Of a stretch of DNA of 7,319 nucleotides, positions 197 through 7,319 are shown piece after piece. The notes beneath the pieces are model-generated. The model searched no databases, was not told the origin of the DNA, and saw only the letters and a program-made list of their open reading frames with translations. A program made the position numbers and the translations under genes. The stretch lies in the IMG/VR virus record IMGVR_UViG_3300002520_000061, positions 1 through 7,319 of that record. One strand, given 5' to 3'. This stretch comes from a virus. The first letter of the stretch is position 1, and each line of letters starts with the position of its first letter.

Positions 197-1528
197 TCAC
201 GCCGACGGCGTGGTTAGACTGGCTAAGGTGGTGACGTTCTCGGGCATGGCAAGGCCACCATTTTGTTTGGGGGCTGGCGTCACAATACGAGGCTGACAGT
301 TAACAGTAATGGCGCGGCCATTGCGGTCTGTGACCACCGAATAGCAATCGCCCAGGTAATCGACCTTATACCCAAGGTTCACCAAGTCATCAGAGTTAAA
401 CGCAAGTTCATCCTTGCCACGCATCCCTGTAAACAAAACCAGCCCCTCAAATCGTCCCGCATAAATCGCGCCACTGGCACCAGTGCTAAACAGCTCGGCA
501 ACGCCATACGGCATCACGAAAGCAGACTGAGGGCTCCCGTTGCCAGCATTCGAGTTAGAAACAGACACAGCCACAGGATCAGCAGACGCAGCAGAACCTT
601 CTTGAGCAGCCACAGGCTGCCCACCTTCAGGTAATGCAGGGTCAGCCGCAAACTTTGCATAAAGAAGCCAGCCCCAGCAGACAAACACGAGCGGTATAAC
701 GACAAACAGGACAAAACGAACCTTAAACGAGGATAACGGGCCGCTAGATTGCCCAGATTTGGTAACAGAGCCTGTTTGAGTGGACTTATATAGCATGTGC
801 ACAGCCAGCGGCACACGCCGCTTAAACGTGACGCTCTGCTTGGTCGGGATGCCGTTTTCAAGGGGGTTGTGCTCATAGATGCGGGGTTTCCGTCTGGAAA
901 GAAAAAACGAATCTTTGCTGGAATAAGCAAAGGCCACTTCACAGCAGGCCCGAACGGGCCGAGGGATAGAGGTAATATCGGGCGTTGCAAACACCACATC
1001 CCAGTTATAGTGACGGTGACGCATAAACGATTCTTTGGGGCTGGTCGGATACATAATCTGGCCCCGTTCATCGAAAACCACCCTCCCCGTATCATCGGTG
1101 TCACACTCTTCAATAGTCTCGGGTTTATAACTGGCAAGAACGTCTTTAAAGAGCTGGATAAAGTCAGCAGGTAACACATTGCTATAGGTATCAATCGGCT
1201 TTAGGTTGTATTCCTCCTGCCCCTTAAATACATCTCTATCATATATATCCTGACATTCATCAATAAAGACGAATGCGCCAATGGGCATCCAGTGATGCCA
1301 GCGCCGCCAGAGTTCTTGATATTTCGGGTCTTGCGAACTGACGCGAAACAATTTCGCGGATTCGGGGAACTTCTCACCGAGAAATTCCTCGATTTTATGC
1401 TTGGGCCACATGCCCGCCGCGTTCGTGACAACGAGGCGGCCAGCGCGAAGCGCAGGAAGCAGGCGAAACCAGATTACAGAGCTGGATTTATAAGAGCCGT
1501 TGTGACCGTGTTCAATGACGATTGCCAT
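197..1528 (-). CDS. Zot/pI-family phage assembly ATPase (zonula occludens toxin-like P-loop NTPase)
   Basis: 443-aa ORF. The N-terminus MAIVIEHGHNGSYKSS carries a Zot-type Walker A (GxxGSYK[ST]). FVFIDECQ is a Walker B candidate. A single TM segment (FVLFVVIPLVFVCWGWLLYA) is followed by a C-terminal domain of about 150 aa. It is the last gene of the structural block and forms a TAAATG junction with the upstream gene. Confidence 0.88.
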   Translation of the reverse strand: MAIVIEHGHNGSYKSSSVIWFRLLPALRAGRLVVTNAAGMWPKHKIEEFLGEKFPESAKLFRVSSQDPKYQELWRRWHHWMPIGAFVFIDECQDIYDRDVFKGQEEYNLKPIDTYSNVLPADFIQLFKDVLASYKPETIEECDTDDTGRVVFDERGQIMYPTSPKESFMRHRHYNWDVVFATPDITSIPRPVRACCEVAFAYSSKDSFFLSRRKPRIYEHNPLENGIPTKQSVTFKRRVPLAVHMLYKSTQTGSVTKSGQSSGPLSSFKVRFVLFVVIPLVFVCWGWLLYAKFAADPALPEGGQPVAAQEGSAASADPVAVSVSNSNAGNGSPQSAFVMPYGVAELFSTGASGAIYAGRFEGLVLFTGMRGKDELAFNSDDLVNLGYKVDYLGDCYSVVTDRNGRAITVNCQPRIVTPAPKQNGGLAMPENVTTLASLTTPSA

Positions 1529-1930: not shown

Positions 1931-3179
1931 TTTTACGACCCCCCATCAAAATTGAAAAAGCAAGCAAAACAGCAAGGAACCAAATGGCCATTTTAGGGCC
2001 GGAATTAAAAAACAATTCGAGGTTAGATTTGCCACTCAAATCAACCCTAACGCCATTTATATCGTGATAATCATTATTGTAAGTGCCAGTGATAGTTAAT
2101 TCCTCAGGCGCAAAAACTGACTTAACATCATTCATAGCGTCAGATATTTCAGTGTCTTTATTCTCTATTTGTTTTTTAACGTCATCAATGGATTCGGTAG
2201 AAAACACCTTTGACAAGGCAGAGCCAGAACTGCCGGATGGCTTGTTAAAAGAACAGAGAGGCCCCTCGCATGGTTTATCACCCCCCTCGCCTCCCCCTTG
2301 ACCATTACGCAATAGCTCCTCAATAGATTCAAGCGCAGAAACCATATTGCCAGCTTGCGCAGCTGACATCTCAGTATTCTGACCTATTTGATGCAATTTC
2401 CCCCATAAGCCGTCAGTGTTACTAACAACGCGAAGATTTGCATTGATTAACGAGTTAAGATGGTTTTGAATTTGCGCCAAATCAAAACTGTAATCAGGTG
2501 AGCTCATATTCTCAAGCTGACCAATTAATCTACGTTCTTTAGCATCCCAATAATCGGAGCTTAGAACCTGCTTGTTATTAAGCGTGGTCAGGTGAAAATT
2601 GGTTGTTTCGCCAGTTTGAGAAATTGAACCTGTTATACCCTGAGTATAATTTCCAATACGCTTTAAATCCTGACTGGATTCAGAGAGGTATTTAGAGGCA
2701 TCAAAAGAAAAAGATTCAAACTTCCTTGAGAAATCCTTAATGTCTCCAGAAACTTTTTCAGAGGCCACACGAACGTTATTTGAAACAACGTTAAAGCCCT
2801 TACCTAAATCGGCATGGCTATTTTGACCAACCCACAGCTCGCCCATATTAACAACACCATTGCCACCTGTGGCGGTGCCATCCTCACCAACAGGAGGGTT
2901 TGGATCTTTCCCAGGGCCGTTATTATCAGTAGGGGTACACTCTTGGCCGCTAGAAAAGTAAGGGCCGCGGGTAGGAGGAACGGCGTTAGGCAGCTCAACA
3001 CAAACAGAGCCATTATCACCCCCACCGCAATAGGCATAACAACCGCCCAGTGTAGAACCCGAATAAACATAGCAAATGGGGTTTGGTGAAACGATATGAG
3101 CAGAGCCGTAATTTACGCCGGGGGCACAGCCAGCGAACGCGGCAAAAGGGGAAAAAAACAAAGGTAAGAGATAACGCAT
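1923..3179 (-). CDS. pIII-like adsorption / minor coat protein; start re-assigned to Met13 of the listed ORF
   Basis: 418 aa counted from the ATG at 3179 (MRYLLPLFFSPFAAFAGC...). It has a signal peptide ending AFA/GC. The N-terminal domain carries 6 Cys and is followed by a Gly/Pro-rich linker (TDNNGPGKDPNPPVGEDGTATGGNG) and a second Gly-rich stretch (NGQGGGEGGDKPCEGPLC). The C-terminal TM anchor is MAIWFLAVLLAFSILMGGRKNA. AGGTG lies 5 nt upstream of 3179. The listed start at 3215 lies just upstream of the terminator hairpin, so that reading frame would run through it. Confidence 0.8.
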   Translation of the reverse strand: MRYLLPLFFSPFAAFAGCAPGVNYGSAHIVSPNPICYVYSGSTLGGCYAYCGGGDNGSVCVELPNAVPPTRGPYFSSGQECTPTDNNGPGKDPNPPVGEDGTATGGNGVVNMGELWVGQNSHADLGKGFNVVSNNVRVASEKVSGDIKDFSRKFESFSFDASKYLSESSQDLKRIGNYTQGITGSISQTGETTNFHLTTLNNKQVLSSDYWDAKERRLIGQLENMSSPDYSFDLAQIQNHLNSLINANLRVVSNTDGLWGKLHQIGQNTEMSAAQAGNMVSALESIEELLRNGQGGGEGGDKPCEGPLCSFNKPSGSSGSALSKVFSTESIDDVKKQIENKDTEISDAMNDVKSVFAPEELTITGTYNNDYHDINGVRVDLSGKSNLELFFNSGPKMAIWFLAVLLAFSILMGGRKNA

Positions 3180-3545: not shown

Positions 3546-3803
3546 TTAACGACTTATCTTTCTAGCGATAAGACCAGTAAAATAACCTGCCAAAAACAGC
3601 AGGATAAAATACAGAACAAACATGCCGAAATATTCGGGGTCAAACCCGAATAAATCGGTTACACCTAATACCTTGTCTAATTCCGTTGGAGTTAGCAGGG
3701 TATAAACTAACGACCCGTCCGCGCTTATTTGCGGGCAAACATCTAGATGCTCTACCCGAGTTATCCCTGTAGTGGAGTCAACAAAGAAGCACGGACGAGA
3801 CAT
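3546..3803 (-). CDS. Small membrane protein (possible pVII/pIX-equivalent minor coat or morphogenesis protein)
   Basis: 85 aa with one C-terminal TM segment (FGMFVLYFILLFLAGYFTGLIA) and a basic tail. It forms a TAATG overlap with the upstream gene. It sits immediately upstream of the major coat gene. Confidence 0.6.
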   Translation of the reverse strand: MSRPCFFVDSTTGITRVEHLDVCPQISADGSLVYTLLTPTELDKVLGVTDLFGFDPEYFGMFVLYFILLFLAGYFTGLIARKISR

Positions 3804-4120
3804 TAGAATTTGGCCTCTTTGGCTTGAGCACCTACAGAGGATTTACCAACGATACCAGAAACAATGTTACGGGTAAGGTCAGTCGGATTAGGCTGCACCT
3901 CCACATCAACCATTTCACCAATCTGACACATGGCAAATTGATTAAGGGCTGATGGCTCTAAATCAACCTCTTTAACTTCATAACCAAAGCCATGATAATT
4001 CATGGTCGCGGTAGTTACGGGCTTGATAGGTACAGCATAAGAAAACATGCACATGTCATATTGCTTGCCTGCTTTTGATGTACCGTGACGACGGGCGGCA
4101 CCAATAAACATTACTTTCAT
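3803..4120 (-). CDS. pV-like ssDNA-binding protein candidate
   Basis: 105-aa soluble protein in the gene V position, after the replication genes and before the coat genes. An AGGAA RBS lies about 9 nt upstream. The function is assigned by size and synteny only. Confidence 0.55.
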   Translation of the reverse strand: MKVMFIGAARRHGTSKAGKQYDMCMFSYAVPIKPVTTATMNYHGFGYEVKEVDLEPSALNQFAMCQIGEMVDVEVQPNPTDLTRNIVSGIVGKSSVGAQAKEAKF

Positions 4121-4139: not shown

Positions 4140-4152
4140 GGTCACTGTTACT
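4140..4152. promoter_or_regulatory. Motif copy GGTCACTGTTACT in the 44-bp gap upstream of the pV-like gene
   Basis: It is intergenic (4121..4164), about 20 nt upstream of the pV-like start codon and next to its RBS. Confidence 0.6.
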
Positions 4153-4164
4153 TTATTTGGGCTG

Positions 4165-4587
4165 CTATTCCAATATGCGGCCATCTGGGTATTGCAGGAA
4201 TGCGCTAACAGAGTTCGCGTAAATCCCCACGTAAAACTCCTCTGCTTTGTCTTTATCGGCAAAGCGTAGGTGTTTAATCTCGGCGTCCATGGTTTCCCAT
4301 TGGACTAAATACGGGCCGTGTTCGGCGATTAACTTGTTACGTTCGGCGGCCATGCGAACATCAATACACATCTGGCGATTACAATAACCGTCACTGTTAC
4401 CGTTAATCGGCAGGTAACAACAAGGACAAATAGATTGAAGGGTCATCGCCTCCCCCAGTTTGCCAGGTGAAATTCGAATACTGGAACGAGACGGGCCACA
4501 GAACCGAACGGCGGGCAATCTCATTGCCTGCAATATATGGGCGTGTTTGGTCGCGCCCCGATGCTCAATGGATAAATAGTCAATCAT
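4165..4587 (-). CDS. Hypothetical Cys-rich protein in the RstB position
   Basis: 140-aa ORF with an ATGA overlap onto the Rep stop. A GAGGG RBS lies 7 nt upstream. It contains CPCC-x14-C-x4-C (CPCCYLPINGNSDGYCNRQMC), a possible zinc-ribbon-like element. A shorter form could start at Met48 (4446, preceded by GGGGGAGG). Confidence 0.6.
   Translation of the reverse strand: MIDYLSIEHRGATKHAHILQAMRLPAVRFCGPSRSSIRISPGKLGEAMTLQSICPCCYLPINGNSDGYCNRQMCIDVRMAAERNKLIAEHGPYLVQWETMDAEIKHLRFADKDKAEEFYVGIYANSVSAFLQYPDGRILE
4389..4401. promoter_or_regulatory. Motif copy CGTCACTGTTACC inside the 140-aa ORF
   Basis: It matches 12/13 to GGTCACTGTTACC. Here it is read in a different frame (GNSD in INGNSDGY). 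An extra half-site, GGTAACA, lies at 4413..4419. Confidence 0.5.
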
Positions 4588-5753
4588 GCTACGACCCTCA
4601 GTTGAAGTTTGGGCATTTGATACCAGCTAGGCGGCAAACATTCCTGACGATGAATCTCGGTGCAGGAAACCATTTTTACAGGGCTGAACTGGCTAATATT
4701 GCACGGACGAGCAATATCAATTCCAATTTTCCGAAGGCGGGCGCGGTGTGTTTGGATTTGCCTTCTTTCGAAGTCAAACTGATGGCCATGCATCCACTGA
4801 AAGGCATAAATAGCAGTGGTGTTTGCTGCTCGAGCAGAATCAACTATTCCAGCAGAAAGTAATTGTGTGGCAATGGTTTCAAATTTCATATTAGACACGC
4901 TCAGTTTTTTGTCTAGGCTGGTAAACTCCGACATTACGGTTTCGAGTCTGGAGTAGTCTGATTTGCCCCAATATTGCAAACCTTCACGCTGCAAATAACG
5001 ATATTTAAATTTCAGCTCATAGCGAACCAAGCCGACCGACCAACAATAGTCAATCACACGCTGCAAATGCTCAACTTCATCTGACTCTGAGCCAAAAGCC
5101 TTGGTTACTTTAGGTAATGAATGCAACTCCAATTCATTACCCTTGGCATACACACAAGGATATATTAACGCCGAATTATTTTTCTTTGACTTCCAATCAC
5201 AACCATATCCATTTGTGAATAAGTGAGGGATTGAGTTTCTATATGAAAGTGTAGATACCGCCGATATATATTTTTTTTCGTTCTCAGCACCAACAGTAAA
5301 GTTTTTAGTGGTATGCAACCCTTTGATGATGGCTCCATCAGCACCAATGCGCTGCATAGGGGAGCCACCTTCAAAAGAATCGTCTCTATAAAAAATTTGC
5401 GTGCACTTGGTGAACTGGGGAACGAAATCAAAACGCCCGTATACCTCTCTCAAGATCTCATTGAATTTGTGAACACACTGGTCAACGGTCGTAAATCCCC
5501 ACAGATTTTCGAGGCGACCCCAGCGGCTGGGATTGCCGCTCATAAAAAGACGATTCCCAGATGCGCGAATGAGCACGGAGTCACAGAAAGAACCCTTGTG
5601 ACTGTAGGCAGGAGACGCAATGCCATTGTCTTGAACAACCTCCCCTTGCTCGACAACAAGGCGAAGGTACGCATTGCCATCAAGCAACGGTAAAGGCTGG
5701 GCAAACGTCTGTTCTATCTCAAGCCAATCGAAGAACACAAAAGTTCCATCCAT
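4584..5753 (-). CDS. Rolling-circle replication initiator, gpII / RstA (Phage_CRI-like) family
   Basis: 389 aa. The N-terminal FFDWLEI and the SGNPSRWGRLENLWGF segment resemble, by recall, the (I)DWL and SGNPSK..GHN.FG / ASPAKVLQGHNVFG motifs of filamentous-phage initiators. It is the first gene of the operon and is divergent from the HTH regulator. Confidence 0.8.
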   Translation of the reverse strand: MDGTFVFFDWLEIEQTFAQPLPLLDGNAYLRLVVEQGEVVQDNGIASPAYSHKGSFCDSVLIRASGNRLFMSGNPSRWGRLENLWGFTTVDQCVHKFNEILREVYGRFDFVPQFTKCTQIFYRDDSFEGGSPMQRIGADGAIIKGLHTTKNFTVGAENEKKYISAVSTLSYRNSIPHLFTNGYGCDWKSKKNNSALIYPCVYAKGNELELHSLPKVTKAFGSESDEVEHLQRVIDYCWSVGLVRYELKFKYRYLQREGLQYWGKSDYSRLETVMSEFTSLDKKLSVSNMKFETIATQLLSAGIVDSARAANTTAIYAFQWMHGHQFDFERRQIQTHRARLRKIGIDIARPCNISQFSPVKMVSCTEIHRQECLPPSWYQMPKLQLRVVA

Positions 5754-5844
5754 GCATACTGTTTGGTGGCTTTATACACCTGAGTCCTCATGCATGCAAC
5801 ACTGAGTGTTAAAATGTGCACACAAGGACACAAAGGGCCGCATA
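5754..5844. promoter_or_regulatory. Divergent promoter/operator region between Rep and the XRE regulator
   Basis: On the minus strand, TTGCAT (5799..5794), a 17-nt spacer and TATAAA (5776..5771) lie just upstream of the Rep ATG. On the plus strand there is an extended -10, TGTTAAAAT (5807..5815). The inverted repeat AACAC-tga-GTGTT (5798..5810) overlaps both promoters. The palindrome TGTGCACA lies at 5816..5823. Confidence 0.55.
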
Positions 5845-6174
5845 ATGCAGCACATAAGCGATAACATAAAACGTATACGCAATGAGGCAGGGCTGAGTCA
5901 GCAGGAACTTGCAGATAGAGCTGGGATATCAAAATCCCAAATCTGGAGGCTGGAAAAGGGAGAGCAAAAAAACCCCACCCTAGAAACACTCATACCGATA
6001 TCAACGGCACTTGGCGTATCTCTAGACGAGATCGTGTTTGGGGAAGAATCAAAAAACGCCACCTATTTATCAAAGGCGATAGAAGAGCTGGAGCCTGAAG
6101 ACAGGAAAGCTATACGGAAAATCATTAGGGGGTGGATCCTGATGAGTCACAATGAAAAGATTTTTGAAGAGTAA
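5845..6174 (+). CDS. XRE/Cro-CI-family helix-turn-helix transcriptional regulator (phage repressor candidate, RstR-like position)
   Basis: 109 aa counted from the ATG at 5845. MQHISDNIKRIRNEAGLSQQELADRAGISKSQIWRLEKGE is a textbook HTH_XRE N-terminus. AAGGG lies 8 nt upstream. The listed ORF begins at a GTG (5806) inside the predicted promoter and is unlikely to be the true start. Confidence 0.85.
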   Translation: MQHISDNIKRIRNEAGLSQQELADRAGISKSQIWRLEKGEQKNPTLETLIPISTALGVSLDEIVFGEESKNATYLSKAIEELEPEDRKAIRKIIRGWILMSHNEKIFEE

Positions 6175-6219
6175 AGATTGAGCAGTGCCCAAGGGGGGAT
6201 ACCGCGGGTTATTGCGGTA

Positions 6220-6248
6220 AAGTCCGGGAGTCACTGAACCCCGGACTT
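6220..6248. other. 9-bp-stem hairpin downstream of the XRE gene
   Basis: aagtccggg (6220..6228) pairs with cccggactt (6240..6248), leaving an 11-nt loop. The loop contains gtcactg, a half-site of the recurrent motif. Confidence 0.5.
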
Positions 6249-6259
6249 CAAAACGCCCC

Positions 6260-6289
6260 AAAACCCCCTGCCCCGCGCTGGGGGTTTTT
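6260..6289 (+). terminator. Rho-independent terminator of the XRE gene, possibly bidirectional
   Basis: AAAACCCCC (6260..6268), an 11-nt loop, then GGGGGTTTT (6280..6288) plus a further T. The A-tract and T-tract flanks allow termination in both directions. Confidence 0.65.
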
Positions 6290-6610
6290 CATGCCCAAGA
6301 CATAGCCAAAGACCAAGACAAGGCGAAGACCTCCACATGGGCTTGTCTACGACACGAAACAGGGGTTGTTACCACACGCGCCCCATAGCCTTCGGCTGGT
6401 CGCTCTGCCTGTGGCCTCAAAGACTGGTTTTGCAGGAAGGGGGGGTATTGCAGCTTTGCCTCTACGAGATCATGAATCACATCGAGGAGGCCGACACATC
6501 GGGGAATAGGTCCTCGGGACGCAAGCGCCCTGCGGAACGGCGTTTATCATGGCTCGCGCTGCTCACCATATGCAGGGAGGCAGCAGCGGATGGCGGCGGG
6601 ATATGGGGCC

Positions 6611-7102
6611 CTACGTGAGGGCCGCATCAAACACGCACTTAGCCAGGCTATCGAGGTCGGCGGCAGGCAACCCCAACGATTCGGGGGCGTTGGCCAGCAG
6701 TGTCTTGAGCGTGGCCATGTGGGCACGATTAAAGGTAACTGTTACCGTATCTTGAGCCTTGCGGGCGCGGTATCGGGCTTGTTTCTGTGCCGGGGTGAGC
6801 GCCTTGCCAGTCTTCGGGCGACCAACTGGGCGCTTTTTGGGAATGAGGTCGAGCTGTATTTCGGTCACTGTTACCTTATTTGCTACGTCATTTTGAGCGG
6901 TTTTTACGTCATTCTCGGGAACCCACAAGGCGAACTCTGGGCCGTTCTTGGGAGCGCCGGCAAACTTCCCAGTGCTCTTGATAACCTTCTTCTCGACCCC
7001 ACAAATCAGCACTATCCAGTGCTGTTTGTTCTGGGTCAAAACAGGCCAATGAGTACCCTCTTCGCAACCGATGCCGGATTTTGTAACAAGCAGTCTATCC
7101 AT
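6611..7102 (-). CDS. Hypothetical 163-aa protein with a basic putative DNA-binding segment; accessory/regulatory gene candidate
   Basis: A GAGGG RBS lies 8 nt upstream of the ATG at 7102. The composition looks like a natural protein, unlike the 178-aa antisense ORF. The central motif is KKRPVGRPKTGKALTPAQKQARYRARK. I recognise no family with confidence. A 27-bp palindrome lies 13 nt upstream of the start codon. Confidence 0.65.
   Translation of the reverse strand: MDRLLVTKSGIGCEEGTHWPVLTQNKQHWIVLICGVEKKVIKSTGKFAGAPKNGPEFALWVPENDVKTAQNDVANKVTVTEIQLDLIPKKRPVGRPKTGKALTPAQKQARYRARKAQDTVTVTFNRAHMATLKTLLANAPESLGLPAADLDSLAKCVFDAALT
6734..6746. promoter_or_regulatory. Motif copy GGTAACTGTTACC (perfect 6-1-6 palindrome) inside the 163-aa ORF
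   Basis: The core is identical to the core of the 27-bp palindrome. It encodes VTVT in DTVTVTF. Confidence 0.6.
6863..6875. promoter_or_regulatory. Motif copy GGTCACTGTTACC inside the 163-aa ORF
   Basis: It encodes VTVT in NKVTVTE. The extended match to the 4140 copy is tatttcGGTCACTGTTACCTTATTTG against tattt-GGTCACTGTTACTTTATTTG. Confidence 0.6.
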
Positions 7103-7114
7103 GATTTTGCCCTC

Positions 7115-7141
7115 TATTTATGGTAACTGTTACCATAAATA
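7115..7141. promoter_or_regulatory. 27-bp perfect palindrome containing the motif GGTAACTGTTACC (operator or origin candidate)
   Basis: tatttatggtaac-t-gttaccataaata has two 13-nt arms that are perfectly complementary. The core motif is at 7122..7134. It lies between the 163-aa ORF start and dif-like site A. Confidence 0.7.
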
Positions 7142-7149
7142 AAGTGATG

Positions 7150-7177
7150 GCTGCGCATAATGGGGTTTATATTCAAT
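7150..7177 (+). other. dif-like XerC/XerD site A (candidate attP half)
   Basis: gctgcgcataa-tggggt-ttatattcaat. By recall, E. coli dif is GGTGCGCATAA-TGTATA-TTATGTTAAAT. The XerC arm matches 10/11 and the XerD arm 9/11, with a 6-nt spacer. Confidence 0.6.
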
Positions 7178-7220
7178 GACACATACGTGTGCCCCCTGCC
7201 CCTTCGGGATTATCGCAGGG

Positions 7221-7319
7221 GGCCGAGCATTAAACATAAACACTCGACATTATGCGCAGTCACCACACATTGTGTTGTGGCCGCGCTTCCAGGTACGCGC
7301 TTTTACAGGATGAAATGCT
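7221..7319. repeat. Right copy of the exact 99-nt terminal direct repeat
   Basis: Identical to 1..99. No flanking non-phage DNA lies outside the repeats. Confidence 0.95.
7229..7260 (-). other. dif-like XerC/XerD site B, inverted relative to site A (also present as 9..40 in the left repeat copy)
   Basis: The plus strand reads attaaacataa-acactcgaca-ttatgcgcagt. Its reverse complement is actgcgcataa-tgtcgagtgt-ttatgtttaat. The XerC arm matches 9/11 and the XerD arm 10/11 to the recalled dif. The spacer is a non-canonical 10 nt, so the site is not a normal duplex dif site on its own. Confidence 0.55.

Follow-up and report, generated by a model that had tools for sequence, protein, structure and literature searches.

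Regulation in filamentous phages that integrate at dif is understood mainly for CTXphi, through RstR and LexA, and for Pf, through Pf4r. Among small replicons, CopG of pMV158 is the ribbon-helix-helix (RHH) repressor of a rolling-circle replicon; it carries Thr residues on its recognition strand and represses the promoter of its own operon via a palindromic element that overlaps this promoter, and we know of no operators inside the CopG gene. RHH antitoxins and ParG-like proteins, which also have the RHH fold, likewise regulate their own expression, have repeated sites and carry a flexible basic arm at the N terminus. A DNA-binding protein with a site in its own coding sequence has a precedent in parS, which lies inside spo0J/parB genes. 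CTX-type hairpin attP sites, as in CTXphi, are known to need no phage factor. The lysogeny module of Vibrio CTX-I inoviruses combines the regulator XafT and a repressor with the dif-like attP (PMC12715192).

This study considered a 163-aa protein encoded next to the dif-like attP of an inovirus. The window, the whole stretch of 7,319 nt that was analysed, is the complete circular inovirus genome (7,220 bp plus a 99-nt terminal overlap). Its genes, including those for coat and adsorption, are on the minus strand with one exception, the plus-strand repressor gene, and the sole match of ORF140 was PHROG 31547, a family of unknown function (E 6e-50). The coordinates of the discussed features are collected in Table 1. 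Combined, the results make it likely that the 163-aa protein is a two-domain RHH-like regulator, fixed in a module of Aeromonas inoviruses, which represses its own promoter via a set of operators, and that the window is a deletion variant of this arrangement.

Table 1. Positions of genes, protein segments and DNA sites in the 7,319-nt window
Feature	Position	Strand	Remarks
Zot-like assembly protein gene	1528..197	-	
RstB-like single-strand-binding gene	4120..3803	-	
ORF140	4587..4165	-	Between rep and the RstB-like gene
Phage_CRI/G2P replication protein gene (rep)	5753..4584	-	
RstR-like HTH_3 repressor gene	5806-6174	+	Convergent with the 163-aa gene, divergent from rep
163-aa regulator gene (P0001), including stop codon	7102..6611	-	ORF and translation, 142 homologous clusters, dN/dS
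Residues 1-62, predicted SH3-like five-stranded small barrel	6917..7102	-	AlphaFold2
Residues 63-90, predicted disordered linker	6833..6916	-	pLDDT <50 at 65-84
Residues 91-118, invariant basic arm	6749..6832	-	R-x-x-GRP-x-TG-x-AL, then KQARYRAR helix
Residues 119-163, predicted RHH-like module	6614..6748	-	Strand TVTVTF, helices 126-137 and 147-162
Ribosome-binding site GAGGG	7110..7114	-	7 nt before ATG; read from the sequence
27-bp perfect palindrome, putative hybrid operator	7115-7141		O3 left flank and O1 right flank; 13-bp core 7122-7134
attP, two inverted dif-like sites (CTX-type pair)	7144-7162 / 7248-7266 (7144..7266)		Directly upstream of the operator; inverted repeat, 19-nt arms, 89% complementary
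Candidate in-gene operator A	6863..6875		Encodes VTVT of the linker (VTVTE)
Candidate in-gene operator B	6734..6746		Encodes VTVT of the predicted recognition strand
Candidate distal operator inside ORF140 (4165..4587)	4389..4401		In an extended imperfect palindrome
Candidate distal operator before the RstB-like gene	4140..4152		About 20 nt upstream of the gene (4120..3803); AT-rich flanks

The open reading frame on the minus strand, its translation and its good ribosome-binding site were present as the first-pass annotation of this DNA had described them, and the ribosome-binding site is kept in relatives as (G)AGGG or AAGG. Compared with 15 relatives, dN/dS was 0.12-0.35 (dS >1 in most pairs), which shows that the ORF is a genuine gene kept by purifying selection. 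The same annotation had called the protein an orphan in an accessory slot for cargo, and neither description survived: a search of 5.8 billion proteins with the whole protein returned 142 clusters at E <= 1e-3, every named one of which is Aeromonas or Aeromonadaceae, and the position of the gene is syntenically fixed in all relatives examined. The gene order is constant in chromosomes and circular contigs alike: first zot, from the same prophage or from its neighbour, or else host DNA, then the 163-aa gene, a convergent small repressor and rep. It holds though the phages differ in their coats, their Zot proteins and their repressors, which measure 46-135 aa and may or may not have an HTH. Within the regulatory and replication module of Aeromonas inoviruses, the 163-aa gene is a conserved core component. 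Nucleotide and protein searches against phage records gave no match, and literature searches turned up no account of this protein family or of what its small-plasmid homologues do. Additionally, A. veronii CP110364.1 (L030) carries a second, degraded copy of the gene at 2749-3141, frameshifted at both ends, in a truncated tandem prophage adjoining the intact copy; the degraded copy retains three upstream operators and both in-gene sites.

The constant part of the family is R-x-x-GRP-x-TG-x-AL-(S/T)-x-A-(E/Q)-KQARYRAR, followed by (T)VTVTFNR and then by two helices. Columns R91, G94, R95, P96, T98, G99, A101, L102 and K107-R114 of the basic arm are invariant, and the only PHROG matches of the protein, all to families of unknown function, fell on this arm. 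The AlphaFold2 model of the 163-aa protein (mean pLDDT 75) has four parts, in which the arm contains a helix at 104-118 and is followed by a strand-helix-helix topology of about 45 residues (extended at 119-125, helices at 126-137 and 147-162) that was seen in both the full-length and the C-terminal models. When two copies of residues 86-163 were predicted together, an ipSAE of 0.43 was obtained vs. 0.00 for the best of three controls; 20 of 30 solved homodimers reach this mark, as does 1 of 23 solved monomers, and the result may reflect the model's memory of solved RHH dimers. The partner pLDDT was 68, and contact agreement between runs was at least 94%. The lowest-error contacts (V122-V122', T121-T123' and V120-F124') place the two strands antiparallel in a ribbon whose centre is V122, and helix 2 packs across it. 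The C-terminal module is thus predicted to be RHH-like and to dimerise via the TVTVTF strand. Fold searches with the C-terminal monomer gave nothing above noise, as would be expected of a predicted module that forms its intertwined structure only with a second copy.

Sequence searches of Pfam, NCBIfam and PDB, run with the protein and with its family profile, returned nothing significant, which includes any RHH sequence model or solved RHH structure in Pfam and PDB. The 163-aa protein passed no RHH model, and neither it nor the six-frame translation of the window matched the PF10723, NF008671 or NF010256 models at E <= 1-10. A profile of the C-terminal half reached further, to 361 clusters at 50% identity, many of them stand-alone proteins of 90-100 aa. 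Among 55 distant relatives, 19 touched NF008671 (YbfE), five NF010256 (RepA2/CopB), four PF10723 and two RHH_1, while RHH_1 or RHH_5 was touched by three (E 0.0015-0.007). The best full-length matches of the intermediates were 2.4e-11 for NF008671 and 1.2e-9 for NF010256, with scores of 44 and 38 bits vs. curated cut-offs of 62 and 87, and none of the matches of the distant relatives reached its curated cut-off. The C-terminal profile (A2) aligned with the intermediate group (A4) in hhalign at 99.3% (E 5e-20) over 58 columns spanning the arm, the strand and helix 1. In the ESM Atlas, RepA2/PF10723 was the named cluster closest to the C-terminal half, at 0.76, which is taken as a lead only. With this link to the intermediates and no model passed, the 163-aa protein is, as judged from these alignments, a remote relative of the CopB/RepA2-YbfE regulators and not a member. 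The first-pass annotation had held that interest in the gene would fall if profile searches placed it clearly in a well-described family; what was found is this remote, transitive link, with no family model passed. Its suggestion that the central basic segment resembles those of small plasmid and phage regulators agrees with the alignments, in which the segment appears as part of such a DNA-binding regulator.

Ahead of the arm, the barrel model has strands at 3-8, 18-24, 28-33, 36-41 and 56-60 with pLDDT 80-88. VIA-align compared it with SH3 domains and phage Bas11 Gp54 at Z 5-6.2 (47-57 residues aligned with the SH3 domains, 2.1-4.1 A rmsd), and Foldseek reached a probability of 0.96 but an E of 0.14. 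The fold search with the whole model returned generic SH3 folds alone (Z 5-6), and the ESM Atlas gave only small-barrel look-alikes for the N-terminal half. The SH3 likeness of the predicted domain is best read as a generic fold match without functional meaning. The first-pass annotation had recognised nothing in the N-terminal part, and the domain indeed matched no sequence family. It is also replaceable, as some relatives have an unrelated N-terminal sequence and others none at all. The linker contains the VTVTE segment and an insertion that is missing from 145-aa relatives (an alignment gap).

The candidate operator is the palindrome GTAAC-N-GT(T/G)AC. With at most two mismatches its core occurs at five places in the window vs. 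0.14 expected (200 shuffles, none of which reached five). In more than 20 related loci, the DNA upstream of the gene has a fixed order of attP, O3, -35, a 17-nt spacer with O2, -10, O1, ribosome-binding site and ATG. In these relatives O3 is the palindrome with AT-rich flanks, upstream of a -35 element TTGCAA or TTGCAT; O2 is GGTAAC-N-GTGACC, inside the spacer; the -10 element is GATAAT; and O1 is GGTAAC-N-GTTACC, about 8 nt downstream of the -10 element and at about +1. The promoter reads TTGCAA-17-GATAAT with O2 in the spacer in L033, a close relative, and TTGCTA-17-GATAAT in plasmid pAhX22. In more than 20 loci and three plasmids, candidate operators overlap the promoter, one within the spacer (O2), one just before the -35 element (O3) and one just after the -10 element (O1). 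A reading of the motif as a LexA box was rejected by eye, as there is no CTGT-N8-ACAG. On the opposite strand of L033 (4179-4207), a second promoter-like site, TTTACA-17-CATAAT, overlaps O1 and O2 and points toward attP; the operator array in L033 may thus control divergent, overlapping promoters.

The motif is carried by all 27 distinct genes of the VTVTF type, with a copy before the gene wherever the locus has upstream DNA. In 11 loci the relatives are without the VTVT strand; the motif is missing from ten of these and occurs once in the other. Exchange of the HTH repressor leaves the motif with the RHH gene, and it is likewise found with the gene in plasmids without such a repressor; therefore the product of the 163-aa gene is the only constant candidate binder. 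From this co-occurrence we infer that the protein binds the motif, and it is most likely a DNA-binding repressor of its own promoter. The first-pass annotation had noted the palindrome before the gene and had taken the gene to be apparently autoregulated. The palindrome is likely the operator of the 163-aa protein, and autoregulation is well supported for the family, where the operators overlap the promoter in relatives; the window itself lacks this promoter.

The plasmid loci extend this layout beyond phages. In the Aeromonas plasmids pAhX22 and pAerIV (2.3-2.5 kb) and in a 1.8-kb A. caviae plasmid record, the same arrangement with GTCAC-N-GTGAC cores precedes a stand-alone homologue, which has 88-92 aa in pAhX22 (2.5 kb), pAerIV (2.3 kb) and L051 and lies, in the first two, upstream of a HUH-type rep on the circle. 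These homologues indicate module exchange between small rolling-circle plasmids and inoviruses. They also bear on the suggestion that the main job of the protein is control of replicon copy number as in CopG/CopB, with a transcript that continues into rep and sets the dosage of Rep, and not a switch of lysogeny or production. That the plasmid homologues have the same promoter and operators upstream of a rep gene fits this suggestion, as do the annotation of the remote relatives RepA2/CopB and PF10723 as replication regulators and the location of the phage gene upstream of rep on the same strand. In the window, however, the convergent repressor gene and a terminator (a hairpin plus a T-run) stand between the 163-aa gene and rep, rep has its own divergent promoter region, and extra operators lie after rep, near the single-strand-binding gene. 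We therefore consider copy control an improbable main role, and repression of its own promoter within the inovirus module the preferred one.

In the window, the upstream site has a different form. The 27-bp perfect palindrome that the first-pass annotation had reported before the start codon is present, 12 nt away from it, and is real and perfect; it is actually a hybrid of two operators, in a copy without the -35 and -10 elements of the relatives. Its left flank is identical to O3 of L035 and L043, and its right flank to O1 of L033. The L033 protein and the 163-aa protein share 96% identity, and homology between L033 and the window starts at the core. The window is without the 59 bp that separate these flanks and carry the -35, O2 and -10. 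From the flank identities and the missing 59 bp, the palindrome thus appears to be a recombinant O3/O1 hybrid. No promoter-like site was found upstream of the ATG in the window, and by sequence comparison a small deletion has taken the gene's own promoter from the copy in the window. That assembly collapse produced this deletion was judged unlikely, the shared core being 13-14 nt vs. a terminal overlap of 99 nt. The 37-mer at the junction was found in no other viral contig. The intact ORF of the window may be silent, or it may be expressed by read-through from the zot operon or from host DNA in a lysogen. Downstream of the zot stop codon, the minus strand has two strong hairpins within 98-169 (98-129 and 144-169), of which the second, together with a T-run, resembles a terminator of the structural operon. 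Read-through into the promoter-less gene would need to pass both hairpins and attP.

The direct adjoining of attP and operator array is common to relatives, and the array begins about 10-25 bp from the second dif-like arm in both the relatives and the window. This closeness, together with the XafT lysogeny module of the Vibrio CTX-I inoviruses (PMC12715192), could point to a role in XerCD recombination at attP, as an architectural or accessory factor that would be either a functional analogue of XafT or a directionality factor. Such a role is highly improbable in our judgement: no Pfam family was matched, and DUF3653, the XafT family, was found neither in the 163-aa protein nor in 32 family members; the same gene-and-operator cassette occurs in tiny plasmids; and operators are also found far from attP. 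In addition, CTX-type hairpin attP sites are known to need no phage factor. Autoregulation by an RHH-like repressor remains the favoured reading of the array.

The two copies of the palindrome core that the first-pass annotation had seen within the coding sequence were found (A and B in Table 1). Wherever both sites occur, A is upstream of B by a fixed 129 bp; A is missing from sub-families without the VTVTE peptide. A VTVT peptide is always encoded as GTN-ACN-GTN-AC, and the presence of an in-gene core alone is without evidential weight; so only constraint at third positions and in the flanks counts as evidence. A synonymous-site test was performed over 50 conserved codon columns in 16 distinct genes, which share ancestry, though dS is >1 for most pairs. 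The third position was invariant in every gene scored at V120 (GTA, 15/15), V122 (GTT, 16/16), F124 (TTT, 16/16) and N125 (AAT, 16/16), and L145 (TTG) was likewise uniform, yet scored in nine genes only. The codon of T121, which matches the free N of the palindrome, is variable (A in ten, T in six), a control Val column contains T4 A4 C3 G4, and GTA makes up 13% of the other Val codons in the compared genes. The constraint at site B reaches into the TTT AAT flank and thus reproduces the O1 consensus with its AT-rich flank, a pattern that argues for the use of site B as DNA. A bolder reading, that this clade tuned the VTVT codons and their flanks into a working operator, with the repressor binding both within its own gene and ahead of the single-strand-binding gene, and that the window is a naturally derepressed variant whose promoter was deleted via operator-operator recombination, is offered as tentative and somewhat doubtful.

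Two further candidate operators lie far from the gene. This distal pair, with its members 247-249 bp apart, is kept in eight loci (L006, L009, L029, L030, L031, L033, L043 and L052), which have the ORF140/RstB module in common. The first member is within ORF140, and the second is located about 20-30 nt before the RstB-like (PF07459) gene, at the same relative position in L030, L033 and L043, and in L048, which has a different, G5P-type ssDNA-binding gene, a site is found 27 nt before that gene. No promoter was predicted at the distal sites.

On its other side, the 163-aa gene is bordered by 436 nt of non-coding DNA, so that it lies between this stretch and the pair of dif-like sites. The non-coding stretch (6175-6610), downstream of the gene, is conserved beyond the gene itself, with a nucleotide identity of 87-97% in L030-L036, L043 and L052 vs. 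51-77% for their proteins. It is probably a cis element (a minus-strand origin or packaging signal) or an RNA; Rfam returned nothing relevant in the window, including this stretch. The 436 nt also bear on another possible identity of the protein, an RHH antitoxin or a ParG-like centromere-binding protein, for which the autoregulation, basic arms and repeated sites of such RHH proteins could be cited. The stretch has no credible ORF, no toxin family was found anywhere in the genome, and the 7.2-kb genome encodes no ATPase of the ParA/ParF type, which leaves this the most remote of the identities considered here and a repressor of its own promoter the one that we retain.

The proposed mechanism for that repressor begins with the dimer. 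Two TVTVTF strands would pair antiparallel such that T119, T121 and T123 face the DNA, as suggested by strand alternation, with the invariant RGRP arm probably placed in the AT-rich operator flanks. The dimer would recognise GTAAC-N-GT(T/G)AC at O3 upstream of the -35, at O2 in the spacer and at O1 near +1, sites that bracket a sigma-70 promoter in relatives, so the protein should repress its own transcription, much as CopG and CopB do in plasmids. The operators in its own ORF and before the RstB-like gene could additionally restrain the shift from replication towards making ssDNA and virions, whether by roadblock or by looping and possibly through the SH3-like domain; these last steps are the weakest of the scheme. 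In the window, a 59-bp deletion between the identical O3 and O1 cores would have removed the -35, O2 and -10.

Overall, these findings suggest a probable second regulator with a defined operator for a whole group of Aeromonas inoviruses. The link to the copy-control cassettes of tiny rolling-circle plasmids supports an exchange of parts with the replication and regulation module of inoviruses. The synonymous-site constraint offers a testable case in which one DNA segment both encodes part of a protein and serves as a site to which that protein would bind, and nature has supplied, in the promoter-deletion variant, a mutant that could show how the regulator affects phage production. The system belongs to a familiar kind, that of RHH repressors, and stands out by the extra domain of the protein and the uncommon arrangement of its sites. 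The protein is best described as a probable autoregulated RHH repressor with two unusual features: the codons for its recognition strand hold a constrained operator, and the window carries a naturally occurring allele from which the promoter is deleted.

Compared with described systems, the closest likeness is to CopB/RepA2 of IncFII plasmids (NF010256; PF10723, RepB-RCR_reg) and E. coli YbfE (NF008671, a LexA-regulated protein), with which the 163-aa protein shares the basic arm RGRP-x-TG...AE(K/R)Q, followed by a short strand and two helices, in what are likewise small regulators of small replicons. Unlike these, it has an extra N-terminal SH3-like domain and a linker in its predicted structure, and its putative operator is different, as is its host replicon, an inovirus. 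CopG of pMV158 (Pfam RHH_1) resembles it as an autoregulating RHH repressor of a rolling-circle replicon with Thr on the strand; however, there was no significant sequence match, just two of 55 distant relatives touched RHH_1 (E 0.007), and CopG has neither the basic RGRP arm nor the N-terminal domain. RstR and RstC of CTXphi and XafT of TLCphi and CTX-I vibriophages are positional analogues, as they lie next to a dif-like attP and a rep-divergent repressor (PMC12715192), but no similarity in sequence or predicted fold was found to these proteins, which are HTH or DUF3653 and not RHH, and the window already encodes a separate RstR-like HTH repressor. The promoter-deletion variant would be comparable to superinfective Pf variants, which are repressor-defective. 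Finally, parS in spo0J offers a precedent for the in-gene site from an unrelated protein family, whereas here the in-gene site falls on the very codons for the predicted recognition strand.
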